The notes: generated by a model from the sequence alone, not told the origin. DNA of 64,000 bases from Candidatus Poseidoniales archaeon (GCA_038110525.1 JAYNJV010000001.1:32355-96354), one strand, 5' to 3'; counted from the stretch's first letter, positions 731 through 63,512 are shown. Numbers and translations: made by a program.

Positions 731-3700
731 TTATTTTTCATCAAAAAACTTCTTCATGCGATCTTCAATACTGCCTTGTCGATTTGCTTCGATTGAAGGG
801 TCCATTTCCTCACGGATAAATTTGAGCCTGCTGCTTGCATCTTGTTCCTTGCCAGGAAGATTTCCGGTGTGTTCTATCAGCATTTCACTCAAGAATTCGT
901 CATTGCTATCATCAAATGGTTCATCCATCACGGAAGTGCCCGGGTCATCAATGACTTCGAGCGACAAGTCATCCTCAATATGTTCTTTTTCGGAAGATTT
1001 TTCACTTTGTTTTGTAGATGATGCCTTGTCTTTGTTTTGTTTGTGAACAATATTCACCTTTGATTGACGTGGTCCAGCAATGAATCCCGTTAACCAAGCT
1101 AAGAGAATCAATACAATCGATGTTGAAAACATCCAAATGAGTTTTGACGAGGTCATGCCATCGAAAGATGATTGCTTGTAAAATGTAGATTTGATGTTAT
1201 CATTGGGATTATCATCTATATCGTAAGGAGAAGAACATCGAAGTGTAGCTGTAATTTTTTCATCATTTTCGAGAACGCCTGGATTTTCAATGATGATGAT
1301 TGGGGCGTAAGCAGAAGAGGTAATATCAACAAATTTTGTAAATGACCAGCCCAATTCAGATTCAAATGAAATTTCACAATATTCCTCTTCCAACACTTCA
1401 TAGCCAGGCCTGAGAATACCAATTTCTAAATCCCCATCTGCGGTGAATGATTGTATTCCAATATTCCAACCTGTAGGACGTATGATAGCATCAATGGCTT
1501 CAGTCTCAACGATTTTTCCAAGTTGATCGATAATTCTCAATTGAAATGTCAACTGGCCTTTGGAAAAAGTGGTGCTTGCCATACTAAGATTCATGGTTTG
1601 GGTAGAATTTCCATCGATTGTATATTGGCTAATGCCAAGTTTGTATTCGATACCATATTGGTCTGAGAGAAGGGCACTGAACCTTTGAATATCGTTCTCA
1701 AAGTTGGTAAATTCACATGTTGCAAAGGTTCCATTGGATGGGTTTGTTGTAAGGCTATTGAAGAAATCCGAAATAAATCGACAACTCACCTCTGCTTCAG
1801 GATACGTCCATGTCGTGACAAACATAGTCAAGTTAAATGATTCATCGGCGGTGACAAAATCAAGTGTAATCTGGCCGTTGTTCGAACCATGTGAAATCAA
1901 GATCTTATTGTTGTTGTTTGTAGTTTCAAGCCGAATTCCGCTTTGGCTCGAAGCGAGAATGATATTGTCTACTTCACTTAGGTGAATCATCGAATCAAGC
2001 GATTCATAATTCGAAACAACGGGGCTACTTTGCCAAGTTAAATTTGATTGTTTAACCAGTATGGAGCGCACTTCTGGAGGGAGTTCAGGATGAGTGACCT
2101 TGATTTGTGCTAAGAATTCAAATCCATTCCAATCCGAGGGTGGAATGAGTTCAATTTGAATCCCTTGCAATTCATGGGGGGCAAGTGTCATTTGAAGAGG
2201 GCCACGTGTACTCCAATCAGAAGGAAGACCTTCAATCTCTATCGCAATTTGGGCAATATCATTTCCATAATTCACAATCCATGCTGCAGGAAAACCTCCT
2301 CCGTCAGAGACCTTCCAGTGGCCTCTTGCATCGAGTGAAATATTTGGTTTTGATGCAACTCTGAATGGAATCGATTCTATTGAGGCACCTGAACCATCGT
2401 TGTCTGATATTTGTAGTAATATCTCTTCAATTTCACCAGCAAAAGCATTGGGTGGTGGTGTGACATGTACCTGGATTTCAACAGTTCCGAATGGTTCGAC
2501 GGAAGAGGTCATATTTTCAACAATGATAGTCCAGCCACTGCTGAATTTGTAAACGAATGGAACCTCGGGGCTATTGCCTTGATGATCAATTCTCAAACTG
2601 ATGTTCGAACCATCGGGTTCAACCTCTAAATTCATTCCAGTGAGGTTAAATTTCCATCCCGATTTTTGCAGGACGGTAAATGTGATACTCTTTGTTTCAA
2701 GAATAAATCCTTCTGAACTAAAGGCGACGCTAAATTCAACCGAAGTACCAGCCCAAGCCTTCTCTGGCACATGGAAGGCGACGTCGATGGTTGTGGTGTT
2801 GTTGACATCCACGAATACCGTCGTTGCGTCTTGCGTATCCCAAAGTTGGTCATCTTGACCGTTGTAAAAGTAGGTGAGTGAGGTGGAAGTCGTTAATTGG
2901 TCGGGGGCATTTCCTAAATTTTGCAATAGAAATTGTATAGAATCAGCTTCGCCGGGAAGAATCCCTCTTTCCCCTTCTCCTTGCAAGGAAATATTCCAAG
3001 CTCTATTTGGTGCAGCATTGAGATAGAGAATTGCTGTATTGGTGACTGCTTGATTGCCAAGAGATGTTGATGAAAATTCAATCTTAAAGGTTACAAGAGC
3101 TGGCAACTCATTTGAGAGGGTGATATCCACTGACGCTACCCCACTGCTCCTTGCGTCAATATTCTTTGTGGAAGTAAGGAAGTCAATTGTTACAAATTCA
3201 TCAAGCGATTCCCCTTCAAGTGAACTTGCAATAGCACTCAACACGAATGTATCTTCTCCGTTACCTGGATTTTCGATACCGAGCAATATTCTATGTTGTT
3301 CAGAAACATTGTATGATGATGGTTCTTCCACGGATGTATCTGCTGGTGATAAAATTTGGATACTGGTCCTAAATTGTTGCAAGACTTGAAGAGAGAAATT
3401 GATCGGGATGCCTCCATCATTTCCGTTAAATGAGTGCCTCATTGGCGGTGCGTAATCGGGTAAGCTAAGCACAAGCGTTCCAGTAACGACATCGTTTGAA
3501 TTACCAGTAAATGACATGGTTGTTGAAGATACGATGAGGTCGCCTGATGAATTCCATTCCCAACCTGAATTCAACATCGAAGCTGATGCCATATTCCAAG
3601 AAACTGAGCCGTCAGATGGTAATTCGCCAACGATTGTCCACTGAAGTGTTCTATCTGGGAGAGAGCGTTGATGATGGGGCGTCATCGTAAACTGCTTCAC

Positions 3701-6496
3701 AATAAACGTAATTTCAATCTCAGCACAAGTAAGTTCAGAACCACTTCCAATACAAATAGTGAGTTCAGTTGTTGTGGAGTCGTCATAATTTGCTGTTGCT
3801 GGTACATCTATTTCTGCGAACAATTCTTGGCTTTCTCCTGGCCCAAGTTGAAGGTTAAAAATTTCAACCCCATTTGAATTTTTTAATTTTGGAGTTGTTC
3901 CCCATGTCGTCGAGGTCCAGTCAAGCGTTGTCGTCGTTTCTTGTGCATTTCCAATGTTTTCAATCACCATCCACGCTTGGGCAATATTTCCAATTCTGCC
4001 TTGACCTGTTGTGTGTTGAATCCCACTCGGGCCAAGCAAAGAAAGACCCCTTGTTCGAAATACTTCGATTTGCAAATCAAACTGTTCTGAAATGTTTACA
4101 TTTGAATCTAATGTAAGCGTGAAATGGACAAGCCCGTTTTCATCGCCAAGTGCTGTTTCTGGTATCGATACTTGAAATTCAACACTTCTTTTCTGCATAT
4201 ATTCGAGCAAGAATGTTGGTTGAGACGAATCCACAGGCAGAAATGTCCATCCTTCAGGCAAATTCGTATCGTCCCAACTCAGCGTCCAATCTTCAGTTTG
4301 TGAACCGATTGACATGAGATTGATTTCGACAATATCAGATTGGCCAGGGACAATTCGAGGAGGGTTATCAGGTCCGAATATCTCGGCAACGTATGGTTCA
4401 ACGACAATTAAATTCCTTTGTGCATGATTATTGTCTTCTCTCGCCTCAGTCACATTGTTGAAAATGTCGAGAACAAGTTCTACGGAATGAATGCCCAAAT
4501 CTGCAGTCACGGTTGCAGTAATTGTCAACGGCCCACCGCTGCCAGAAGGTGCTGCTGGGCTTACCTCAGTGAACCGCTGTCGGGCAATTTCAACTCCATT
4601 GAGGAGAAGCATCACGTCCACATTTGCATCAGGGTCCTCTGTTCCAACATTTGAAAATTGACCAGTGATGGTCACCTCTTGGCCGGGATTGGCTTGATTT
4701 GGATTAAATGATATACCTCTACCGTCACTGGTTGGTTCCAAATCAGCTCGTGCTTCAGAGACCAGCGTGTCTCCAATGAGAATGTCAATTGCACCATCAC
4801 CATCGACATCTGCAATCGCAGGTGCAGCCCAAGTTCGATGGGGCATACCAAGGGGTGTGGACCATCCGTCAGAAGCATCAGCAGATGAGCCTGTATCTCC
4901 ATCAAATGCATACAATCTTTTCCCGAATGCGACGAGAATTTCAGGCGTTGAGTCACCGTTGATATCCATCCAAAATGGAGGTGATACGGCAATTTCATCA
5001 TTGTCATTACCTCCTCCACGCTGGAGGTTCCGAGTCCATTCTTGAGATGGATTCTCATTACTTATATCGTGGCAGCCAAGCATTCCTTCACGATTGAAAT
5101 TAAATGCTGATTCTGAGTACCATGTCACCCAACATAATCGGTCATGCCTTCCATCTTCATCGATATCGATGGCAACAGGTTGGGTATCAGCAAATCCATT
5201 CGGTGCTCGAAATGAAAAAATCTCATCGGTCGAAGTAATTTCCATTCCAATGAATTTTGCTCCGGTTCCCGAAGTTCTTCCGGTTGGGTCTGTTGGTATA
5301 GTGATCACCATTTCGGGAGCACTATCAGAATCAAGTTGAACAATCACGGGTCCAGGCAATCTCAAACGAGGTGCTTCATCGTCACCCGTATCAGTCCCTT
5401 GTACAGCGACACGTTCCCACAAGATGCTCCCAGTTGCTCCTTCAATCTTCCATATCCACATATTTCCCGAATTCGAATCAATTGTTGTCAAGAGAACGAC
5501 AGTGTTCGAACTATCAAGTTGTGCAAAAACTGGGTCAGATGGATGTGAACCTCTGTCTAAACTGACGGACCATTTTGGAGTTGTAGGAGTGTTCATTGTT
5601 AAATCAAATGCTGTTAATTCAGGCATTGGATTGTTATCGGGGTCGTCTACAAGGGCTACAATCAAATTTGGAGAACCATCCAAATCAAGGTCAGCAAGAA
5701 GAGGTTGTGTCACGGCGTAGTGCCCACTTTCCCTTGTGGGTAGGTGTGGCAATGTAGATGAGATTCGAACATCAGAGTTTGAGTAGGACCAAATAAGTTC
5801 GTTCGAGTGTCCGCTTTCTTCCCAAGTTGAATTTGTGCATGTTAACTCGGGTGACCAAACATCAATGTGAAATGCAGAATCTGTGTCGTAAGCCACAATA
5901 ATTTCTGGTTTATTGTCTCCGTTAATGTCATGGATGATTGGTGTAGCTCTTACCTCACGTGTTTGTCCGATTTCACCCTCCCAAGCAATTCTTGCATCAT
6001 CACCTGAAACGATAGAAATTGTACTGATGAGATTGCCATTTGAAACTTCACTTGTAATCATAACAGGGAACAGCGTGTTGTTCCCGCAACGCTCTTTTGC
6101 TTGTTCAGGGGCAGAAATACTCTGGGAAAAATCGCCAATGACAGAACCATATGAATCTGCTTCATTGGATTCAAATGCCTGCCAGTTGATCACTGGAGTT
6201 ACAATGGCGTCCAACACTTCGACATCAGAAACAGCACCTTGGCCAGGCCCTCCATCTGGATTGTGGACTGGAATCGGTCCGTTGTGTGATGGGGTGCCTC
6301 CGAATTGGGCCCACGGTTGTTCGTAAGGATCCCATGCCTCGATATGATTCGACAGATCGATTGGATTAGAATCAAGTTGTTTCGTATCGCCCAATGGAGC
6401 ATCGATGATTTGATTTTGCAAGGAAACAAAAATGAACAACAAAGCCATCATTATTGATGGCAAGCGCCTTGGTTCATAGGCTCCGCTCTTCATCAT
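731..6496 (-). CDS. giant cell-surface protein with an FG-GAP/VCBS-type propeller, a CARDB-like domain, a long Ig-like array, a C-terminal TM anchor and a cytoplasmic tail
   Basis: 1921-aa ORF with an N-terminal signal peptide (RRLPSIMMALLFIFVSL). Repeated FG-GAP-like calcium motifs are present: DINGDNKPEIIV, DLDLDGSPNLIV, DIDEDGRHD, DINGDSTPEILV, DVDGDGAIDILIGD. A CARDB-like segment reads NPGQEVTITGQFSNVGTED...DNNHAQRNLIV. A TM helix (LIWMFSTSIVLILLAWLTGFIAG) lies near the C-terminus, followed by a ~115-aa K/E/D-rich tail. GGAGG lies 11 nt upstream of the ATG. Confidence 0.85.
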   Translation of the reverse strand: MMKSGAYEPRRLPSIMMALLFIFVSLQNQIIDAPLGDTKQLDSNPIDLSNHIEAWDPYEQPWAQFGGTPSHNGPIPVHNPDGGPGQGAVSDVEVLDAIVTPVINWQAFESNEADSYGSVIGDFSQSISAPEQAKERCGNNTLFPVMITSEVSNGNLISTISIVSGDDARIAWEGEIGQTREVRATPIIHDINGDNKPEIIVAYDTDSAFHIDVWSPELTCTNSTWEESGHSNELIWSYSNSDVRISSTLPHLPTRESGHYAVTQPLLADLDLDGSPNLIVALVDDPDNNPMPELTAFDLTMNTPTTPKWSVSLDRGSHPSDPVFAQLDSSNTVVLLTTIDSNSGNMWIWKIEGATGSILWERVAVQGTDTGDDEAPRLRLPGPVIVQLDSDSAPEMVITIPTDPTGRTSGTGAKFIGMEITSTDEIFSFRAPNGFADTQPVAIDIDEDGRHDRLCWVTWYSESAFNFNREGMLGCHDISNENPSQEWTRNLQRGGGNDNDEIAVSPPFWMDINGDSTPEILVAFGKRLYAFDGDTGSSADASDGWSTPLGMPHRTWAAPAIADVDGDGAIDILIGDTLVSEARADLEPTSDGRGISFNPNQANPGQEVTITGQFSNVGTEDPDANVDVMLLLNGVEIARQRFTEVSPAAPSGSGGPLTITATVTADLGIHSVELVLDIFNNVTEAREDNNHAQRNLIVVEPYVAEIFGPDNPPRIVPGQSDIVEINLMSIGSQTEDWTLSWDDTNLPEGWTFLPVDSSQPTFLLEYMQKRSVEFQVSIPETALGDENGLVHFTLTLDSNVNISEQFDLQIEVFRTRGLSLLGPSGIQHTTGQGRIGNIAQAWMVIENIGNAQETTTTLDWTSTTWGTTPKLKNSNGVEIFNLQLGPGESQELFAEIDVPATANYDDSTTTELTICIGSGSELTCAEIEITFIVKQFTMTPHHQRSLPDRTLQWTIVGELPSDGSVSWNMASASMLNSGWEWNSSGDLIVSSTTMSFTGNSNDVVTGTLVLSLPDYAPPMRHSFNGNDGGIPINFSLQVLQQFRTSIQILSPADTSVEEPSSYNVSEQHRILLGIENPGNGEDTFVLSAIASSLEGESLDEFVTIDFLTSTKNIDARSSGVASVDITLSNELPALVTFKIEFSSTSLGNQAVTNTAILYLNAAPNRAWNISLQGEGERGILPGEADSIQFLLQNLGNAPDQLTTSTSLTYFYNGQDDQLWDTQDATTVFVDVNNTTTIDVAFHVPEKAWAGTSVEFSVAFSSEGFILETKSITFTVLQKSGWKFNLTGMNLEVEPDGSNISLRIDHQGNSPEVPFVYKFSSGWTIIVENMTSSVEPFGTVEIQVHVTPPPNAFAGEIEEILLQISDNDGSGASIESIPFRVASKPNISLDARGHWKVSDGGGFPAAWIVNYGNDIAQIAIEIEGLPSDWSTRGPLQMTLAPHELQGIQIELIPPSDWNGFEFLAQIKVTHPELPPEVRSILVKQSNLTWQSSPVVSNYESLDSMIHLSEVDNIILASSQSGIRLETTNNNNKILISHGSNNGQITLDFVTADESFNLTMFVTTWTYPEAEVSCRFISDFFNSLTTNPSNGTFATCEFTNFENDIQRFSALLSDQYGIEYKLGISQYTIDGNSTQTMNLSMASTTFSKGQLTFQLRIIDQLGKIVETEAIDAIIRPTGWNIGIQSFTADGDLEIGILRPGYEVLEEEYCEISFESELGWSFTKFVDITSSAYAPIIIIENPGVLENDEKITATLRCSSPYDIDDNPNDNIKSTFYKQSSFDGMTSSKLIWMFSTSIVLILLAWLTGFIAGPRQSKVNIVHKQNKDKASSTKQSEKSSEKEHIEDDLSLEVIDDPGTSVMDEPFDDSNDEFLSEMLIEHTGNLPGKEQDASSRLKFIREEMDPSIEANRQGSIEDRMKKFFDEK

Positions 6497-12620: not shown

Positions 12621-13743
12621 TTTTTAATACACCGTATCCGTACTTGTCATCGTGGCCAGTTTGCCCTGATTTTGGTCCACTTGAATCCATGATCCATTGC
12701 TTTACCTCCTCAATACTCGAGCTTCCATCATTCGTTTCATGTTGCATTTCGGGCCTTGCTTCAAGAAGAAGTGCAATTGCTCCGCTTACATACGCAGTAG
12801 CTGCACTCGTTCCATCGACGAGTGCCCACTTACTGTCGAGACTAATCACTGGGACTGCATGTGCTGGGGCAATAACTTCTGGCTTTTTGTTTGGGTCAGT
12901 GCGAGGGATAAATGGCCAAGTTGACCGTATATTGTTGTCGCCGATTGATGACCCTGACCAACTTTCACCATTGCTCATTACCCCTCCAACACTAATCACT
13001 AATTCCTCGCTTGATGGGTGTGCAACATCTCCATCGTCATTCTCGCCACCATCATTACCGGCTGCGGCGACGACAAAAATTCCTGCATCAATTGCGTCAT
13101 TCGACGCATCACCTGATGACCTTCCACCTCCGAGCGTAAATGGTAAGATACCAGGTGCCCCTCCAAGTGAAAGTGAGATCACATCTGCACCTTTGAGTAC
13201 ACACCAATCGATGGCCTCTGCCACAATTTCATCAGAACCCTCTCCGGATTTTGAGAGGGCCTTTGCAACATATAGATTCACTTGAGGGGCTACACCTTGA
13301 AGCCAACCGTCTGCTACGATAATTCCAGCCATTGCTGTGCCATGTCCATTATCATCGTAAGGTGTAGTTTGGGCGTTGATAAAATCAAACCAACCACTTA
13401 ACACAATATGGTCGATGTCTGGGTGCGTTAGGTCAATTCCGGAGTCGACGATACACAAGTCGACCCCGTCGCCTTGAAATGAAATTTGATTTTGTTGAAT
13501 CATGTTTTGATATGTGGTGTGTCTTTCGAGTGCGTATTCAGTAGGCTTGAGTAATATTGTGCCCCCTGAGAGATACAGAATAACGAAATACGCTACTGCG
13601 GATATGAAGGCGATACTTAGGCCAATTGACACGACACGTTTTACAAAGATGATGTCGGGGTCGTCAGAGAGGTCAACATCATCCTCAAATTTCGAGTTTT
13701 GTGTCAACATGAAATCAGGTGTTGGCGGCAGGCGGTCTTCCAT
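12592..13743 (-). CDS. membrane-anchored subtilisin-like serine protease (S8)
   Basis: The catalytic triad motifs are VDSGIDLTHPDI (Asp), HGTAMAGII (His) and GTSAATAYVSGAIALL (Ser). An N-terminal TM helix is present (IGLSIAFISAVAYFVILYL). ATG 13743 is preceded by GGGTGA, which overlaps the sufS stop. Confidence 0.85.
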   Translation of the reverse strand: MEDRLPPTPDFMLTQNSKFEDDVDLSDDPDIIFVKRVVSIGLSIAFISAVAYFVILYLSGGTILLKPTEYALERHTTYQNMIQQNQISFQGDGVDLCIVDSGIDLTHPDIDHIVLSGWFDFINAQTTPYDDNGHGTAMAGIIVADGWLQGVAPQVNLYVAKALSKSGEGSDEIVAEAIDWCVLKGADVISLSLGGAPGILPFTLGGGRSSGDASNDAIDAGIFVVAAAGNDGGENDDGDVAHPSSEELVISVGGVMSNGESWSGSSIGDNNIRSTWPFIPRTDPNKKPEVIAPAHAVPVISLDSKWALVDGTSAATAYVSGAIALLLEARPEMQHETNDGSSSIEEVKQWIMDSSGPKSGQTGHDDKYGYGVLKIKNLIDASS

Positions 13744-16237: not shown

Positions 16238-16323
16238 GCCGAGATCGCATAGCCTGGTAGTGCGCGCGACTGGAAATCGCGTGGGTTCGTCCCTCGGGAG
16301 TTCAAATCTCTCTCTCGGCGCCA
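16238..16323 (+). tRNA. tRNA-Ser (anticodon GGA), class II with a long variable arm and encoded CCA
   Basis: I folded the cloverleaf by hand. Acceptor GCCGAGA/TCTCGGC, anticodon stem CGCGA/TCGCG, loop CTGGAAA. The variable arm is 14 nt (TGGGTTCGTCCCTC), the T arm is GGGAG-TTCAAAT-CTCTC, and the discriminator G is followed by CCA. The region is GC-rich against an AT-rich background. Confidence 0.85.
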
Positions 16324-16354
16324 CACTTCGTTTGATAGTTGATAGAGCAAAGCG

Positions 16355-16362
16355 GTTAAATC
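16355..16362 (+). promoter_or_regulatory. candidate TATA box for tRNA-Thr
   Basis: GTTAAATC lies 25-32 nt upstream of tRNA position 1. Confidence 0.4.
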
Positions 16363-16386
16363 AAGATGTAAGGTCGCCCACTTGTT

Positions 16387-16461
16387 GCCACCGTGGCTTA
16401 GTGGTATAGCACCTCATTGGTAATGAGGAGGTCGCGAGTTCGATCCTCGCCGGTGGCTCCA
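16387..16461 (+). tRNA. tRNA-Thr (anticodon GGU), encoded CCA
   Basis: Acceptor GCCACCG/CGGTGGC, anticodon stem CCTCA/TGAGG with loop TTGGTAA, T arm GCGAG-TTCGATC-CTCGC, then T-CCA at the 3' end. Confidence 0.9.
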
Positions 16462-26481: not shown

Positions 26482-27468
26482 ATGGCACGAATTGCAATTA
26501 CAGATGGCATGGAAGAAAAAGCGATTTTATTGTTTGAAAAGGCCGGCCATGAGGTGATAGACAAAACGTACACTCCTGAAGAATTACTTCAAGGTGCACT
26601 TGATGGAGTCGACGCAATTGTTGTTCGAAGTGCTACGAAATTAACGAAAGAAGTCATCGAAGCATCTTCCAGTTCTCTCAAGGTCATTGCCCGTGCCGGT
26701 GTTGGCGTCGACAACATCGACCTCGAAGCAGCCGGTGCAATGGGTGTCTTTGTCGTCAACGCCCCTCAAGCCAGCACACAATCGGTGGTCGAACTTACCT
26801 TGAGCCATCTACTTGCAAGCCTTCGGTTTCTACCAAAAGCGAATGAAGGATTAAAGCAAGGTAAATGGGAAAAAAATGCCTTGAAGGGAACTGAGTTAAG
26901 CGGAAAGGCTCTCGGTCTCATCGGTTTTGGTCGCATAGCTCAAGGTGTTAGCCGAGTAGCACAGGCCTTTGGAATGGAAGTTCATGCTTTTGACCCATAT
27001 GTGCCCGAGCGTGTTGCAAAATCAGAAAACACAAGATTGCATAAGTCAGTCGACTCCCTGTTTTCTGCATGTACACATATTTCCATTCATTGCAACTTAA
27101 CTGATGAAACCCATCATCTCGTCAATTTGGAAAGGATTCGACTCATGCCGACCATTGGATCTGATGGGATTCCATGTGGCAATCATATCGTGAATTGTGC
27201 TCGTGGAGGTATTGTCGACGAAGATGAGGCCTTTGCAGCACTTCAATCTTCTGAACTCACAAGCCTTGCTTTAGATGTCTTTGAAATTGAACCAGTTCCC
27301 GCAGACCATGCTTTACTTCAACATCCCAACTTTCACGGCACACCTCATATTGGGGCCTCAACACTCGAAGCACAACTTCGTGTTGGATTGAATATTGTTG
27401 ATTCTGTTCTTGATATTCTTGATGGCAAAGATTGTGATTTCGTGGTGAATCGCTCTTTTTTGCAATGA
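26482..27468 (+). CDS. serA: D-3-phosphoglycerate dehydrogenase-like 2-hydroxyacid dehydrogenase (no ACT domain)
   Basis: NAD-binding GLIGFGRIAQ, catalytic-region NCARGGIVDE and TPHIGAST are present. The length fits the short form. Confidence 0.8.
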   Translation: MARIAITDGMEEKAILLFEKAGHEVIDKTYTPEELLQGALDGVDAIVVRSATKLTKEVIEASSSSLKVIARAGVGVDNIDLEAAGAMGVFVVNAPQASTQSVVELTLSHLLASLRFLPKANEGLKQGKWEKNALKGTELSGKALGLIGFGRIAQGVSRVAQAFGMEVHAFDPYVPERVAKSENTRLHKSVDSLFSACTHISIHCNLTDETHHLVNLERIRLMPTIGSDGIPCGNHIVNCARGGIVDEDEAFAALQSSELTSLALDVFEIEPVPADHALLQHPNFHGTPHIGASTLEAQLRVGLNIVDSVLDILDGKDCDFVVNRSFLQ

Positions 27469-27528
27469 CTTTTACTTTGTTTCATCTCCGAACACAAGTT
27501 AAGCAATCCGATGTGTTTGCTATGAGTC

Positions 27529-27807
27529 ATGGGTCGAAGCGTACCAACATGGCGTCGTCGAATTGAATATGAATTGGACCGATTGCAACCCTTTCGTCGT
27601 GCATTACCCAATCACGAAAAAGAAATATTTGACTCAATGATGAATTCGATTCGGCAAAGAAGGTCATCGGGAGGATTACTTCCAAGTCATGACATTGTGC
27701 TTCCTCTTGTTCTTTCTCTTCTTCTCGAAGCATGGGGTAAAATTCACTCGTTGGAACGATCATTGCAGCAACTGGAGTCCACTCAGCAGGGTGAACATGT
27801 TGATTGA
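27529..27807 (+). CDS. small arginine-rich helical protein, translationally coupled to polB (hypothetical)
   Basis: 92-aa ORF whose last 11 nt overlap the polB ATG (27797). It is basic (WRRRIEYELDRLQPFRR...). I recognise no homologue. Confidence 0.4.
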   Translation: MGRSVPTWRRRIEYELDRLQPFRRALPNHEKEIFDSMMNSIRQRRSSGGLLPSHDIVLPLVLSLLLEAWGKIHSLERSLQQLESTQQGEHVD

Positions 27808-30229
27808 AGGCTATCTTTTTGATGTCCATCCTTCGTCATGCAGTACCCACATGATTGCATGGATACTTGATGCGCATGGGTCTGCACATCGATGCCCATG
27901 TCCTTGGCGACCAACGTTGCAAGTATCAGGCCAATATCGAGATCTCAAGAATTTGGAATTGTGGCTCGAGCAGCCTGAGATTCAGACAAAATATAGCATC
28001 TGCAGCACACGTTATATCAAGGCACGACTCGACCTTGAGGAATATGAAATCCACAAGGTTCTCGAGATTGAAGTTTCTTCGGGGCGAATTCTCAAACATT
28101 TAGGGCAACACATCGAGCATAAAGGAGATTTCACCAAATTTACTCTCTATTCATTGGACGCAAATTTAGTTCAACGATTTCTCAACGCATCTCAAGTTTC
28201 ACTTTTTGAACGAGTTATTTGGAGATGTGATTCGAATTGTTTGAGTCGAGCTGAGCATACCTCACGCCTAAAATTACGAGCAATCGAATTGGCAGTCATC
28301 TTTGACACGCCAACTGGTTTTCGTACTTTATCAACGCCTATTGCATCTGTTGAATTCCGCCCTCTTGAATATGAAAGGGAACTGATTGAATCTGCAGTGA
28401 GTACCATAATTACCGTGGATTTTACTCACTCTTCATCCCTTGAAGAGGCTCTTTTGTCCGTGCAAAAACAACTTCGCCGTATTGACCCAGATATTGTATG
28501 TACTCGTTCTGGAGACAAAATCGAATTTCCTGCTTTACTCAATGCAGCACAGTCCGTTGGAATTGACCTTTACTTTGGTCGTGATGATTCACCACTTGTC
28601 GCTCTTAGTCAAGCACGAACAGTGTGGTCGTATGGGCAGGCCTTGAGAAAGAATGCGTATCATCCACTTCGTGGACGTATTCATCTTGATATCTCATCAA
28701 GTTTCATAGTTCGTGAGGGTGGCATCTCGGGTCTCATCGAACTCGCTCGGTTATCAAATCAATCTGCACAAGATATATCTCGATTATCGCCAGGTTCGGT
28801 GATAAGTGCCATTCAAATAAGAACTGCGATGGACGATGGGGTACTTGTGCCATGGAAAAAAAATCGTCCTGAAGATACCAAAACGGCACTTGAACTTCTG
28901 CATTCGGACCGTGGAGGTTTGTATCTTGATAGTACACCAGGTTGTTTTTCAAATGTCATTGAACTCGATTATGCGAGTCTTTTTCCAAGTATCATTGCGA
29001 CACGAAATATCTCTTCCGAGACACTCAATTGTCCCTGCTGCGTCCCTCTTTTACGAAATGAGCATACGCTCTTCCTCCCCCTCGATGTCCAAGATGCATC
29101 GGATGAAATGAGTCGCAGGAATGTCGAACATCGATTTGGCAGTGGCTTATTTCCTCAAAGTAACGAATTTGCCCTCCGAGTACCAGGTCTAAATTTGCAC
29201 ACATGTGGTAGGAGGCAAGGTTTCCTCGGTCGCGTAGTTGGCCCAATCATACAACGTCGTCGTGAACTCAAACGCCTTCGAGTCTTCAAAAAAGACCGAT
29301 ATGATTTGCAACAAAATGCCCTCAAATGGTTACTCGTGACATGTTTTGGCTATACCGGTTATCGAAATGCACGATTTGGACGTATAGAAGCACACGAGGC
29401 CATCTGTGCATGGGCCCGAGAAATTCTACTTTTTACCATCGAAGAAGCACAAAACGCAGGTTGGGAAGTGTTGCATGCCGTTGTTGATAGCGTGTGGATT
29501 CGAGATGTCCGGGGAAGAAGTCGAGATGAACAACTTCAGGCGGCCTACAACTTTGCAAGTGATATCTCCCAGAAGGTCGGGATTCCTCTCGAGTTTGAAG
29601 ACATGTATCGTTGTATTGCATTTGTTCCGAGTCGAGTTCACAAATCGGGTACCCTAACAAAGTACTGGGGGTGGAATGGAAGTGATTTCAAAATTAGGGG
29701 TATTGAACTACGTCAGCATTCAACATGCAAATGGACAAGCACACTTCAATCGAAAGGGTTAGCCCTTCTTGTCGAACATTTGGAGGCTGGTGAACATCTG
29801 CCTTCATACAGGCAACAGCGTGAAGTTCATGCACTTTTTCATACAGAATATGATGCCATTTTGAATTCAAAGGTCGACCTCAATGCCTTCGTTGTTTCAC
29901 GGAGAATAACAAAGACTCGACAACAACGAACGGTCATGAATTTGACACATGCAGCATTATTGCGAGCAGAAAAGTACGGGATGGAAATACCAGCGGGAGG
30001 ACGAATTCATTTTGTCGTCATCGACCAAAGCGATGAGGTCCCAATACATCGAATCATCTTGCAAGAAGAGCTTTCAAGCGAAACGAGGGGAAGAGTAGAT
30101 GCGGCATTTTACATTCAGGATGCAAATCGAGCGCTCTGGTCTATCTTAAGTCCATTCGGATGGTCGGAGGGAAAGATTGAGAGGAAAAACATTCAATGTA
30201 GTTTAAACGATTTTGTCCATTCCATTTGA
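27797..30229 (+). CDS. polB: family B DNA polymerase, divergent (PolB2-like; exonuclease and motif C residues degenerate)
   Basis: Motif A is LDYASLFPSII, motif B KWLLVTCFGYTGY, and motif C region LHAVVDSVWI (canonical YGDTDS). A KIRGIELRQHS segment corresponds to the archaeal GLE.VRRDW region. The Exo I-equivalent is RAIEL (canonical DIE) and the Exo II-equivalent is SGDKIEFPAL. Confidence 0.85.
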   Translation: MLIEGYLFDVHPSSCSTHMIAWILDAHGSAHRCPCPWRPTLQVSGQYRDLKNLELWLEQPEIQTKYSICSTRYIKARLDLEEYEIHKVLEIEVSSGRILKHLGQHIEHKGDFTKFTLYSLDANLVQRFLNASQVSLFERVIWRCDSNCLSRAEHTSRLKLRAIELAVIFDTPTGFRTLSTPIASVEFRPLEYERELIESAVSTIITVDFTHSSSLEEALLSVQKQLRRIDPDIVCTRSGDKIEFPALLNAAQSVGIDLYFGRDDSPLVALSQARTVWSYGQALRKNAYHPLRGRIHLDISSSFIVREGGISGLIELARLSNQSAQDISRLSPGSVISAIQIRTAMDDGVLVPWKKNRPEDTKTALELLHSDRGGLYLDSTPGCFSNVIELDYASLFPSIIATRNISSETLNCPCCVPLLRNEHTLFLPLDVQDASDEMSRRNVEHRFGSGLFPQSNEFALRVPGLNLHTCGRRQGFLGRVVGPIIQRRRELKRLRVFKKDRYDLQQNALKWLLVTCFGYTGYRNARFGRIEAHEAICAWAREILLFTIEEAQNAGWEVLHAVVDSVWIRDVRGRSRDEQLQAAYNFASDISQKVGIPLEFEDMYRCIAFVPSRVHKSGTLTKYWGWNGSDFKIRGIELRQHSTCKWTSTLQSKGLALLVEHLEAGEHLPSYRQQREVHALFHTEYDAILNSKVDLNAFVVSRRITKTRQQRTVMNLTHAALLRAEKYGMEIPAGGRIHFVVIDQSDEVPIHRIILQEELSSETRGRVDAAFYIQDANRALWSILSPFGWSEGKIERKNIQCSLNDFVHSI

Positions 30230-31063
30230 GACAAAATCATTGAGCGTGAGTGGTAGTTTTTCATCGATCCAAAATCCTGCTTGAGAACTCGGTTCATGAC
30301 GCAAGAAAAGTCGTTGAGTGCCTTTTTTTTCGATGATGTTGCCATGAAGTTGGCATTGTACATTTGCCTTCAAAATTTCATTGAGTATCGATTCACGGCG
30401 CGTCCGAATGTTTGAATCACCGGTTGAAACAATCATGAGTGGATGAATGATTTGCAAGGCATTGAGGATATGACATTCATGTTGGAGTAGCATACGTGCC
30501 TCGCGATGACCAACTTGGTCATCGGTGTGCATCATAAGAAGACCATCAATAAACACGAAAGGTGAACCCGTCAATTTGATTTCATCTGGTAACCGCTCTA
30601 TCTGACGAACGAGTTGATGCAATGTAAATCCCCTGCTCACATACAATCGGGAAAGACATTCTTCGACAGGTTCATTCATTTGGCGTAGTAGTCTAAGCAA
30701 GCGAGAAGGGTCCATTCGGCAAGCACCATCAATCCAATGAACTGGATATCCAAGAGCGAGAACTTGACATACCCAAATTTCAGCGACAGAGCGCATGTGT
30801 CTTCCTGCTTTGTAAGGACTTGAAAGGTGATACCATTCTCCTATTTTTGGAAAAATATGATGATGAAATTGAGATTGAGGGGGACGTTCCAATTTCATTT
30901 CAAGCAGAGAATTATCGGTTCCCGCCCCATCTCCAAATGCGATTTCAGGTTTCATGTGAATCATAGAATATGGTTGAAGTAAGTCGAGATTGTTTTCGTT
31001 AGCAGGGAAGGAAAAGTGAATGTGAGATTGTTGAGAAGGGTGAAGTTGAAACACCATAGCCAA
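30203..31063 (-). CDS. RadB/RadA-paralog-like protein with a degenerate P-loop (predicted pseudo-ATPase)
   Basis: It aligns by eye to the RadB core. SSPYKAGRH replaces GxxxSGKT, VHWIDGACRMDPSRLL replaces V.YIDTEG.F.PERL, and SPFVFIDGLLMMH corresponds to Walker B. It is convergent with polB (27-nt overlap) and divergent from dinB (23-nt gap). Confidence 0.6.
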   Translation of the reverse strand: MAMVFQLHPSQQSHIHFSFPANENNLDLLQPYSMIHMKPEIAFGDGAGTDNSLLEMKLERPPQSQFHHHIFPKIGEWYHLSSPYKAGRHMRSVAEIWVCQVLALGYPVHWIDGACRMDPSRLLRLLRQMNEPVEECLSRLYVSRGFTLHQLVRQIERLPDEIKLTGSPFVFIDGLLMMHTDDQVGHREARMLLQHECHILNALQIIHPLMIVSTGDSNIRTRRESILNEILKANVQCQLHGNIIEKKGTQRLFLRHEPSSQAGFWIDEKLPLTLNDFVSNGMDKIV

Positions 31064-31086
31064 ATATCCTTTCTTGAGGGAAGAAG

Positions 31087-32178
31087 GTGGATGAACACAT
31101 CATCATTCATTGCGATTTAGATGCATTTTTTGCAGCGGTCGAAGTTCTTCATCATGGATTTGACCCAGAAATCCCACTTGTCATTGGTTCTGACCCACAA
31201 CAAGGTAACGGTAGGGGGATTGTGTCGACATGCAATTATGCCGCCCGTCGATTTGGAATACGCTCAGCGATGCCCATATCTGAGGCATGGCGGAGATGCC
31301 CTGCTGCTCCATTTGGGCCGGCAATATACATTGGTGGAACCAGGGGTTTGTATGGAAGAGCAAGCCGAAAAGTGATGGACATTTTACGTTCATCTTCTGA
31401 CAAATTTGAGCAGGCAGGTATAGATGAGGCATACCTCGATATCACACAAAAGTGTGAGGGCGACTGGGATAACGCATATGCGTTGGCTCGAAAAATACAA
31501 CTCCAAATCAAAGAAGAAATCGGATTATCAGCTTCATTCGGAATCGCACCAACGAAAATACTTGCAAAAATGTCGAGTGAAGAAAACAAACCCAATGGAA
31601 TATTCAGGATTCTTCCGAATGAAATACCATCTTTTTTTGATGGCCGAAGTGTGAGACAGGTCCCAGGTATTGGGCCAAAGACTGCTACACAACTATCGGA
31701 ATGGGGGCTTGAAACGGTCGATGAAATGTACAGGTTAGGGATGTTAGGCCTTCAACGCCTTTCAAGCGAACGATTTGCTGCTTGGATAATCAATCTCTAC
31801 GAAGGAACGACAAGCAACCAACTTCATGCATTCCATCAACGGAAGTCCTTAGGAAAAGAGCGAACCTTTGATCGAGATACAAACGATATCGAAATAGTTC
31901 TTGAGGCTCTTGAAAAATTGCTCCTTCGATGTGTGGAATTACTCAACGAAGGACAAGCGGGTGCGCGAGTCATTGAAGTCAAAATTCGATATCAGGGATT
32001 TGAAACATATACTTTCCAAAAGAGCTTACCCGTTGCGATGGACGACCCTGATGTGTTCTTGCGATTGGCACAATTTCTATTCGCACAAAATGTGGAGCTT
32101 GACAAACCGATTCGCCTCATAGGAATCCGTTTCAGTCATTTAGAATTCATGGAATTTCGTCAAGAAAGACTTGTATGA
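31087..32178 (+). CDS. dinB: DNA polymerase IV (Y-family, DinB/Dbh/Dpo4)
   Basis: IIIHCDLDAFFAAVE (catalytic Asp pair plus Phe steric gate), GIDEAYLDIT, APTKILAKMSSEENKPNG and PGIGPKT are present. GTG start preceded by GAGGG. Confidence 0.9.
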   Translation: MDEHIIIHCDLDAFFAAVEVLHHGFDPEIPLVIGSDPQQGNGRGIVSTCNYAARRFGIRSAMPISEAWRRCPAAPFGPAIYIGGTRGLYGRASRKVMDILRSSSDKFEQAGIDEAYLDITQKCEGDWDNAYALARKIQLQIKEEIGLSASFGIAPTKILAKMSSEENKPNGIFRILPNEIPSFFDGRSVRQVPGIGPKTATQLSEWGLETVDEMYRLGMLGLQRLSSERFAAWIINLYEGTTSNQLHAFHQRKSLGKERTFDRDTNDIEIVLEALEKLLLRCVELLNEGQAGARVIEVKIRYQGFETYTFQKSLPVAMDDPDVFLRLAQFLFAQNVELDKPIRLIGIRFSHLEFMEFRQERLV

Positions 32179-62701: not shown

Positions 62702-62720
62702 GACCCTCTTGAACGAGCGT

Positions 62721-63020
62721 CGGGATAGGTGGGGAGCTCGGCGTACCCTACATCACAAATCGTCGTTATGGTGGACCGAACGCCTTGGGGCGGCGAGAGC
62801 GGGCCCTTGGTTTCCACATGCGGACGTTGATGTCTCGCCCCCACATGACCTGGGTGTCTTGAACCGTATCCGGAAGGAAACGGGAATGGAATAACCGGGG
62901 GACTAGGTCAGGCCGGGAACGGAGCAGCCCTACCTGGGGCCATGGGTGCTGTGGGGTAACGGGATGGAGAATGTGTGTGGGCTTGGCCGAGGGCAACGAG
63001 CGTCCACCTTTGGCCCTCCC
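62721..63020 (+). ncRNA. signal recognition particle RNA (archaeal 7S RNA)
   Basis: This is a ~300-nt GC-rich island in AT-rich DNA. The 5' AGGUGGGGAGCUCGGC pairs with the 3' GCCGAGG...CCACCU (helices 1/2). A helix-6-like CCGGAAGG hairpin lies at ~62870. The conserved helix-8 motif GGUCAGGCCGGGAACGGAGCAGCC lies at ~62906-62929. An ATTTT tract follows. Confidence 0.85.
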
Positions 63021-63023
63021 ATT

Positions 63024-63512
63024 TTACACATCAAAGATAACTTGGCTAATCCATGCTGGTCCAGCAATTTCAGGAATTGATTTGTCTACATGGAAATATG
63101 ATTCGTTTGCATTTAGAAAGCGAACAAAATTGTCGTGAGATGTCACTGCTTTAATTTCAGTTTCTGGGACAATCTCATTTGAATCAACGTATACTACATC
63201 TGCGAAAATCTTGCAACCATCCATTGTATGTTGAATAGAAATCTTTCCATCAAGATACAATTGGTTTTGAATTTCTCTACGAAATAATATTTCATCAAGC
63301 CATCTCAACAGAATCATTTCCTTGTCAATATGTCCGTCAAATGTGGAATTCCATTGACCCTGGCGTATTTTTTGATGGTCTTCGAGGGAGTTTAATTGGG
63401 GTGATAGAATTGACATCATCCCCTTCGTAGACTGATCTATGAGTTCTTCAAAAGTTGGTGAGAAACTAAACACACCTACATCTGCAGTCGTTGGAAATTG
63501 AATAAATCCCAA
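63024..63512 (-). CDS. archease (RtcB activator)
   Basis: The N-terminal FPTTADVGVFSFSPTFEELIDQSTKGMMSIL compares with canonical F.HTADIG..A.G.TLEELF..AA.GM. The C-terminal EIKAVTSHDNFV compares with IKAVTYH. Confidence 0.8.
   Translation of the reverse strand: MGFIQFPTTADVGVFSFSPTFEELIDQSTKGMMSILSPQLNSLEDHQKIRQGQWNSTFDGHIDKEMILLRWLDEILFRREIQNQLYLDGKISIQHTMDGCKIFADVVYVDSNEIVPETEIKAVTSHDNFVRFLNANESYFHVDKSIPEIAGPAWISQVIFDV

Follow-up and report, generated by a model that had tools for sequence, protein, structure and literature searches.

A conserved predicted operon encoding an 'inactivated' B-family DNA polymerase (PolB2), a helical protein of ~90 amino acids (aa; arCOG07300) and an inactivated RadA was described by Makarova et al. 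in 2014 (PMC4104785), and Timinskas, Timinskas and Venclovas (2025) have renamed the two partners PPB2 and iRadA, modelled a PolB2-iRadA-(PPB2)3 heteropentamer and defined its diagnostic features (PMC11791011). In print, this PolB2 mutasome has been likened to Pol V (UmuD'2C-RecA) and to Pol zeta. The same paper classes Dpo2 as an extender and cites later work that reports it to be an active, damage-induced polymerase required for targeted mutagenesis; it is the main damage-tolerance polymerase of Saccharolobus islandicus (PMC11791011). The supplement of that paper places the Poseidoniales complexes EHR76802/EHR76801 and MBL6742770/MBL6742771 (Poseidonia sp.) in group '3b (PPB2-PolB2-iRadA)', and the published models cover two Poseidoniales sets (PMC11791011); the difference between groups 3a and 3b was not found in its accessible text. 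Here we analyse a 64,000-nucleotide (nt) stretch of a Candidatus Poseidoniales archaeon (GCA_038110525.1, JAYNJV010000001.1:32355-96354; 'the window', with positions counted from its first letter), in which genes for PPB2, PolB2, iRadA and the Y-family polymerase DinB lie side by side at 27529-32178. We put at roughly 85% the probability that the first three, at 27529-30964, make up the archaeal PolB2 mutasome in its Poseidonia form. Both the module and its likely architecture have been published before, as has its occurrence in Poseidoniales, and the main additions made here are minor: the iRadA start, a shared promoter element, patchy retention of the P-loop and an inverted repeat encoding NDFV. 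A sequence-only reading of the same DNA knew of no description of such a module for planktonic euryarchaea; two papers do describe it (PMC4104785, PMC11791011), and Poseidoniales are listed under 3b.

The mutasome genes of the Poseidonia locus

All four adjacent open reading frames (ORFs) that the sequence-only reading had reported at 27529-32178 were recovered, together with the 11-nt overlap of the PPB2 ORF with polB2 and the 27-nt overlap of the convergent polB2 and iRadA 3' ends:

27529..27807, + strand: PPB2 (arCOG07300), 92 aa, small helical PolB2 partner with an N-terminal MGRS arm
27797..30229, + strand: PolB2, 810 aa, putative B-family translesion polymerase with a degenerate exonuclease domain (PF00136, E=3e-27)
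30203..30964, - strand: iRadA, 253 aa from the conserved ATG, RadA/Rad51 ATPase core without an N-terminal domain
31087..32178, + strand: DinB, canonical Y-family DNA polymerase IV (NF002677, 264.6 bits)

The window genome belongs to Poseidonia (Marine Group II), and we compared it with 80 species-representative Poseidoniales loci whose PolB2 identity ranges from 42% to 97%, the closest locus being the one at 97%. The arrangement PPB2→PolB2→←iRadA was found in all 80 wherever the contig has room, with iRadA on the opposite strand and convergent to polB2 in every Poseidoniales locus and with 3' ends that commonly overlap, by 4 to 167 nt. The polB2-iRadA junction is not obligatory, because L034 (8413-10663) and L070 have two inserted membrane-protein genes, together ~2.3 kb, separating polB2 from iRadA.

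The best NCBIfam matches of PolB2 were NF004418 and NF004416 ('type B DNA-directed DNA polymerase'), both under cutoff, and the protein is 30-34% identical to the PolB2 proteins of haloarchaeal operons (E 1e-72 to 1e-85). When aligned to Pyrococcus PolB by HMMER, its motif C is V562-V563-D564 (VVD vs. DTD), Exo II reads SGDKIE in place of NGDxFD, and the Tyr and Asp of Exo III are not conserved; the Exo I-equivalent hexamer is variable among relatives. The [IV]VD form of motif C is present in 79/79 homologues (72/72 from Poseidoniales and 7/7 from haloarchaea). Motif A is intact in the window, with LD[FY]ASLFP[SN] conserved, and the PolB2 homologues strictly keep motif A, motif B and the second Asp of motif C. 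Since the deviations are conserved in 79/79 homologues from independent assemblies, the odd residues are, on this comparison, real and not assembly noise, and the non-canonical exonuclease and motif-C residues to which the sequence-only reading had pointed are thereby corroborated. The D(K/R) motif is D371-R372 in the window, and at least 90% of 79 PolB2 sequences, haloarchaea included, share VLVPW..R(P/H)E..K...L..ADRGG; ADRGG and the VLVPW segment are invariant in Poseidoniales and haloarchaeal PolB2. Judged by this pattern, the stretch from VLVPW to ADRGG corresponds to the published D(K/R) motif and the iRadA-binding beta-alpha part that precedes it. The C-terminus carries a motif resembling a PCNA-interacting peptide (PIP), QCSLNDF (residues 800-806), and the strict form Qxx[LIVM]xx[FYW] was found in the tail of PolB2 in 42 loci, in that of iRadA in 8 and in both in 0, which suggests that clamp binding here probably goes through the QCSLNDF of PolB2.

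The window PPB2 begins with MGRS and has Arg3 and Arg9, and both MGR[ST] and Arg9 were found in 77/77 Poseidoniales PPB2 proteins. Their profile aligned over its full length with the PPB2 of Halalkalicoccus, the gene of which sits between those of iRadA and PolB2 (hhalign, probability 98.6%, E=1.4e-15), and the window protein is 49% identical to the PPB2 of L037 (CM001443), which is exactly EHR76802.1, an accession in the supplement of PMC11791011. A Pfam and NCBIfam search of the 92-aa protein returned no match in the libraries used; its homologues carry the precomputed PF26485.1, an entry absent from the Pfam copy searched. The AlphaFold2 (AF2) monomer is all-helical (helices 8-25, 28-47 and 53-89), leaves the N-terminal arm free and has a moderate pLDDT (73), and a Foldseek search of it against the PDB gave nothing significant and did not reproduce the published sigma-factor-like similarity. 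The assignment is useful for annotation, as the window protein (MEK9730166.1) is still a 'hypothetical protein' in NCBI.

The longest iRadA ORF spans 30203-31063 (-), with a TTG start codon at 31063. Because L003 and L005 have a stop codon in frame upstream of the conserved MIHM and the L006 ORF begins at MIHM, translation most likely begins at the ATG at 30964, which gives an iRadA-dinB divergent intergenic region of 122 nt; the 23-nt spacing between DinB and the RadB-like start given by the sequence-only reading holds only for the longest, TTG-initiated ORF. The protein gave a weak Rad51 match and E=0.05-0.07 with RadA equivalog models, its profile retrieved RadA/RadB/RAD51D cores from the PDB (E=4e-7), and hhalign against haloarchaeal iRadA gave a probability of 94%. 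In the AF2 model (pLDDT 81, pTM 0.79) residues 1-26 are disordered and there is no N-terminal domain, and the top Foldseek matches are RadA/RAD51/DMC1 ATPase cores (E~1e-11, TM 0.6-0.7). The Walker A equivalent (30797-30823) reads SSPYKAGRH, with the P-loop lysine lost, and the catalytic Glu is replaced by Ala (IDGAC vs. IDTEG in RadA) in all sequences aligned (11 and 24 sequences). The destroyed P-loop that had been read from the sequence thus stands, and the label 'RadB-like' proves loose for what is a RadA/Rad51-family core.

In these features the locus resembles the PolB2 mutasome of Saccharolobus islandicus and Halobacteria (PMC4104785, PMC11791011): the same three families, an MGR[TS] arm containing both R3 and R9, loss of the first motif-C Asp, a D(K/R) that follows a conserved beta-alpha segment, a RadA core stripped of its N-terminal domain and of the catalytic residues, and a strict PIP-like motif in one large subunit only, as published ('rarely in both'). 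It differs from most published PolB2 operons in that the Poseidoniales iRadA is on the opposite strand, convergent and often overlapping at its 3' end, that no orc1/cdc6, SRAP or DUF72 neighbour is present here, that about half of the Poseidoniales iRadAs show GxxxxGK[ST], and that DinB is the next gene in part of Poseidoniales. The core intuition of the sequence-only reading, an ATPase-dead RecA-family protein acting with a non-replicative polymerase in damage tolerance, agrees with the published 'mutasome', which has a small partner in addition.

At the convergent 3' overlap the two large genes share one further feature:

30206..30241, no strand: inverted repeat, AACGATTTTGTC, 12-nt spacer, GACAAAATCATT

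Each 12-nt arm encodes the NDFV of a PIP-like C-terminal tail, that of PolB2 (+) or that of iRadA (-), and the iRadA tail LNDF/LKHF was found only in the window's close relatives L001-L005. The 27-nt gene overlap falls within this repeat (region 30203-30241), and since each strand has a run of T4, the repeat might double as a bidirectional terminator.

A tandem hexamer upstream of both transcription units

A tandem hexamer with the clade consensus CACTTTCACTTTCA lies upstream of both the PPB2-polB2 and the iRadA units, and the window copies are:

27467..27480, + strand: tandem-hexamer element of the PPB2-polB2 unit, window variant GACTTTTACTTTGT, weak
31011..31024, - strand: tandem-hexamer element of the iRadA unit, CACATTCACTTTTC, 13.2 bits by position weight matrix (PWM)

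In 77 loci the PPB2 element sits between -62 and -79 relative to the ATG (median -64), with 30 perfect matches; in the window it adjoins the stop codon of the dehydrogenase gene upstream, and the iRadA element, of the same family, stands 47-60 nt upstream of the iRadA ATG. We built the PWM from PPB2-upstream sites and scanned 2.09 million positions, which gave 146 matches of at least 12 bits in the 80 loci: 78 at training sites, 37 iRadA-oriented sites upstream of iRadA, and 31 elsewhere. Because the iRadA upstream regions make up only about 0.5% of the scanned sequence, ~0.3 matches were expected there by chance (vs. 37 observed). The loci are phylogenetically related, but the iRadA sites occur in several clades, including DinB-less ones with a perfect CATTTTCACTTTCA. 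In the loci set side by side, the element is followed in both promoters by a similar GGGT.TT…AAGCAT segment, 25-30 nt ahead of the ATG. As iRadA is transcribed separately, two coordinated promoters are needed for the complex, and we infer from the motif that the shared tandem hexamer coordinates expression of the PPB2-polB2 and iRadA units. Two candidates for further regulon members were rejected, namely the best other match in the window (13162-13175), which lies inside a subtilase coding sequence, and a recurrent match in L014, L015 and L027, also inside coding sequence.

The element extends to some haloarchaea. The iRadA-PPB2-PolB2 operon of Halorubrum sp. PV6 carries CACTTCCACTTTCA and that of Halobaculum roseum carries CACTTTCACTTCCA (plasmid-borne), both exactly at -64 from the iRadA ATG (L082:2437-2450 and L087:1915-1928) and each the sole match of at least 9 bits within a locus of ~9 kb. 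This Poseidoniales-type motif is present in only 2 of about 9 true haloarchaeal operons, the others carrying a different tandem element, ...CGGAA-N-CGGAA(A/C)CACC; the haloarchaeal plasmid PolB matches L088, L089, L090 and L092 are lone polB genes and not operons, and two of them adjoin orc1/cdc6. One of these, on a plasmid of Halobacterium hubeiense, has a strong motif match, CAGTTTTACTTTCA (L092:873-886, 19.4 bits), 65 nt ahead of an IS200/IS605 transposase gene, which in turn directly precedes the lone polB, so the insertion sequence (IS) may have entered between a former promoter and the gene.

We know of no established damage-response cis-element or regulator in haloarchaea. In Sulfolobales, a damage-response element, 5'-ANTTTC-3', is bound by Orc1-2 in several damage-response promoters, and in S. 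islandicus the induction of dpo2 is Orc1-2-dependent and the Y-family polymerase is not induced (PMC6061795). The Poseidoniales element consists of two tandem A[CGT]TTT[CT] copies, a unit that matches ANTTTC, and the parallel extends to the Y-family gene, Poseidoniales dinB lacking the element much as the Sulfolobus Y-family polymerase lacks induction; it differs in being one tandem at -64 to -51 from the ATG (vs. -23 to -55) and in a different phylum. The resemblance, which turns on a degenerate hexamer, is a lead and not a demonstration, and no Orc1/Cdc6 gene was found among the window ORFs scanned (those up to 55460).

The shared element did not turn up in the literature searched and may be new. 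We advance only tentatively, as a doubtful proposition, that CACTTTCACTTTCA is a conserved archaeal DNA-damage-response cis-element travelling with the PolB2 mutasome; if so, it would hold the split mutasome genes in one regulon and leave the adjacent dinB outside, and if it were related to the Orc1-2 site, an Orc1/Cdc6-type damage regulon would span Thermoproteota, Halobacteria and the uncultured marine Poseidoniales. It would also offer a handle on DNA-damage regulation both in uncultured Poseidoniales and in genetically tractable haloarchaea. As a discovery the locus carries little weight, the module, its likely architecture and its Poseidoniales occurrence being published and the DinB neighbourhood tabulated; the promoter element is the one lead for specialists.

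DinB and the weighing of alternatives

DinB passes the NCBIfam DNA polymerase IV equivalog NF002677 (264.6 bits vs. a cutoff of 256), has IMS and IMS_C domains, is annotated in NCBI as DNA polymerase IV (MEK9730169.1), and aligns D10, D113 and E114 to the catalytic residues of Pol IV 7yll; a canonical Y-family DinB on the strand opposite to the RecA-like gene, as the sequence-only reading had it, is what we find. The gene is head-to-head with iRadA in 52/70 judgeable species loci, down to 48% PolB2 identity, and absent in 18/70, where the trio is intact in a different neighbourhood. That reading had treated the whole cluster as one neighbourhood to be followed across relatives, and its conservation is complete for the trio in the 80 loci with room and partial for DinB. 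A rough neighbour-joining tree of PolB2, which carries no support values, groups the DinB-adjacent loci in two clades, and basal lineages and one nested clade are without an adjacent DinB. Because the DinB-adjacent loci also have ValRS (50/50) and the upstream 2-hydroxyacid dehydrogenase (47/47), DinB is no better conserved than its housekeeping neighbours, as in block synteny. The adjacency has been tabulated before, without discussion: Supplementary Table S1 of PMC11791011 counts IMS in 46, 2-Hacid_dh_C in 45 and tRNA-synt_1 in 42 of 95 group 3b neighbourhoods and IMS in 4/1375 operons of group 1a. DinB is probably not part of the mutasome and looks like a lineage-specific neighbour.

The dinB side of the divergent region has an element of its own:

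31040..31055, + strand: dinB-proximal element, GTGAAGTTGAAACACC, a tandem of T[CG]AA hexamers

Its spacing from the dinB start is constant in the 52 DinB-adjacent loci, where it has the form T[CG]AAGT-T[CG]AAAC-ACC (CATCAAGTTCAAACACC in other clades), with a C/G switch that occurs in both repeat units together between clades, and it is absent from the iRadA promoters of loci without DinB. A loose resemblance was seen to ...GGAAACACCCC upstream of haloarchaeal iRadA and cdc6 genes (L081, L086, L094).

The bacterial SOS cassette combines ImuA, a RecA-like protein without ATPase activity, with ImuB and DnaE2, a C-family polymerase, and ImuB has a Y-family fold without catalytic carboxylates and acts as a scaffold. 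The likeness of the Poseidonia cluster to this cassette, which the sequence-only reading had taken for a possible counterpart, is one of concept, an ATPase-less RecA-fold protein together with an alternative replicative-family polymerase in damage-induced mutagenesis. In composition the two differ: the polymerase here belongs to the B family and not to the C family, the Y-family protein is a Pol IV with its catalytic residues intact, which the cluster can do without, the RecA-like protein descends from RadA/Rad51, and PPB2 is without an Imu counterpart. Because D10, D113 and E114 are kept, DinB is, on its sequence, not ImuB-like, and with DinB missing from 18 of the 70 loci the cluster is a counterpart of ImuA-ImuB-DnaE2 in concept only. 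A published likeness is to Pol V (UmuD'2C-RecA): in both, an oligomerisation-like motif links the polymerase to a recombinase homologue, and the small subunit inserts its N-terminal arm near the active site (PMC11791011). The catalytic subunit of E. coli Pol V is, in contrast, Y-family, its recombinase is the active cellular RecA, and its small-subunit dimer is unrelated to PPB2.

Several points weigh against the identification as a PolB2 mutasome. With iRadA on the opposite strand there is no single operon as in most lineages; Exo I of PolB2 was read as AIELAV (vs. FDIET) by manual alignment, in a region not alignable by HMMER; the window has weak forms of the promoter motif (with 4 mismatches at the PPB2 copy and a score of 13.2 bits at the iRadA copy); and GxxxxGK[ST] is retained in 40/78 Poseidoniales iRadA homologues (e.g. 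L010, L011, L040 and L059), 6 more keeping GxxxxGK and 32, the window included, having lost the signature. We regard the convergent iRadA as a variant arrangement (published class 3b) and not as exclusion from the PolB2 mutasome. The decay of the P-loop is, by these signatures, patchy within one order, and since 40/78 still carry GxxxxGK[ST], the 'inactive' status of iRadA is to be read from the lost Glu; nucleotide binding may persist in some species. The loss of the first motif-C Asp and of the RadA catalytic Glu, with the degenerate exonuclease site, would also suit a non-catalytic or regulatory complex, in which PolB2 and iRadA are inactivated relics serving in replication regulation or the handling of stalled forks, the original 2014 proposal and a possibility raised by Makarova et al. 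(PMC4104785). We think this very unlikely: Dpo2 is reported to be active, damage-induced and required for targeted mutagenesis (work cited in PMC11791011), and the strict conservation of motifs A and B and of the second motif-C Asp argues for retained catalysis. Only the family-level Pfam matches speak for an ordinary replicative PolB beside a housekeeping RadB, with odd residues arising as assembly noise. To this we give practically no credence, as it is refuted by the synteny of the trio and by the conservation of motif C in 79/79 homologues from independent assemblies: the RecA-like gene is always beside PolB, and the PPB2 gene always precedes it. Nor does a conserved housekeeping RadB unrelated to polymerases, an alternative that the sequence-only reading had itself named, survive the lost P-loop, the constant position beside PolB2 and the E~0.05 of the RadA models (0.05-0.07 for the equivalogs).

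A further reading would widen the PolB2 mutasome into a four-gene translesion supermodule, with DinB as inserter and the mutasome as extender, co-regulated from the iRadA-dinB divergent region; it turns the functional link suggested by the sequence-only reading into an inserter/extender pair, for which Pol eta or Rev1 acting with Pol zeta offers the comparison. On its side are the adjacency and divergent orientation in 52 of the 70 judgeable loci, retained down to 48% PolB2 identity, the short intergenic region (about 120-130 nt) with conserved elements that include the dinB-proximal tandem hexamer, the joint change of both hexamer units between clades, and the description of Dpo2 as an extender (PMC11791011). 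ValRS and the dehydrogenase are, however, kept beside the cluster equally strictly, the trio is intact without DinB in 18 loci, basal lineages included, and a dinB-oriented scan with the shared motif gave 0/53 matches above the background 95th percentile; IMS is also rare near polB2 outside group 3b (4/1375 in group 1a, PMC11791011), and in S. islandicus it is Dpo2 that is the main damage-tolerance polymerase, the Y-family polymerase not being damage-induced. We therefore hold the supermodule to be unlikely; an inserter/extender partnership of DinB and the mutasome, on adjacency alone, is possible.

Proposed mechanism and the surrounding window

Starting from the gene identities, sequence hallmarks, synteny and motif sharing observed here, and taking complex formation, extender activity, damage induction and clamp binding from the literature by analogy, we propose how the PolB2 mutasome may act in Poseidonia. 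Ultraviolet (UV) or other damage would induce both transcription units, PPB2 and PolB2 being made from one transcript, with an 11-nt overlap that suggests translational coupling, and iRadA from the convergent one, and the three proteins would assemble into a pentameric PolB2-iRadA-(PPB2)3 mutasome. PolB2 would be the catalytic subunit, with its palm and fingers intact, the first motif-C Asp missing and the exonuclease dead; iRadA, an ATPase-dead RadA core, would dock on the PolB2 beta-alpha segment (VLVPW…) as RadA subunits do in a filament (published models); and PPB2 is predicted to trimerise, with its MGR[ST] arm inserted between PolB2 and iRadA near the DNA. The assembly would be recruited to PCNA, probably tethered via the C-terminal QCSLNDF of PolB2, and would serve, by analogy with Sulfolobus Dpo2, as a translesion polymerase induced by damage, its main task being to extend primer ends that are mismatched or paired with a lesion. 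The dinB gene would stand apart as a separate, active Pol IV gene; in one large part of Poseidoniaceae it is head-to-head with iRadA, inside a conserved housekeeping synteny block. Marine Group II archaea inhabit sunlit surface water, and the PolB2 mutasome is, on this analogy, probably their main inducible damage-tolerance polymerase.

A mobile island or recent transfer was considered for the cluster and rejected, the GC content being flat across it (0.43-0.45) and the flanking genes housekeeping. An Rfam scan of the window returned only the signal recognition particle (SRP) RNA and two tRNAs, none close to the cluster: an archaeal SRP RNA (62718-63024) and, adjacent to each other, tRNA-Ser(GGA) and tRNA-Thr(GGT) (16238-16461). 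The gene content of the window fits a typical Marine Group II chromosomal region. It also includes a 1921-aa surface-type protein with FG-GAP, CARDB and NEW3 domains (731-6496) and further large secreted-type proteins with TSP3, PKD and PNGase-F C-terminal domains.

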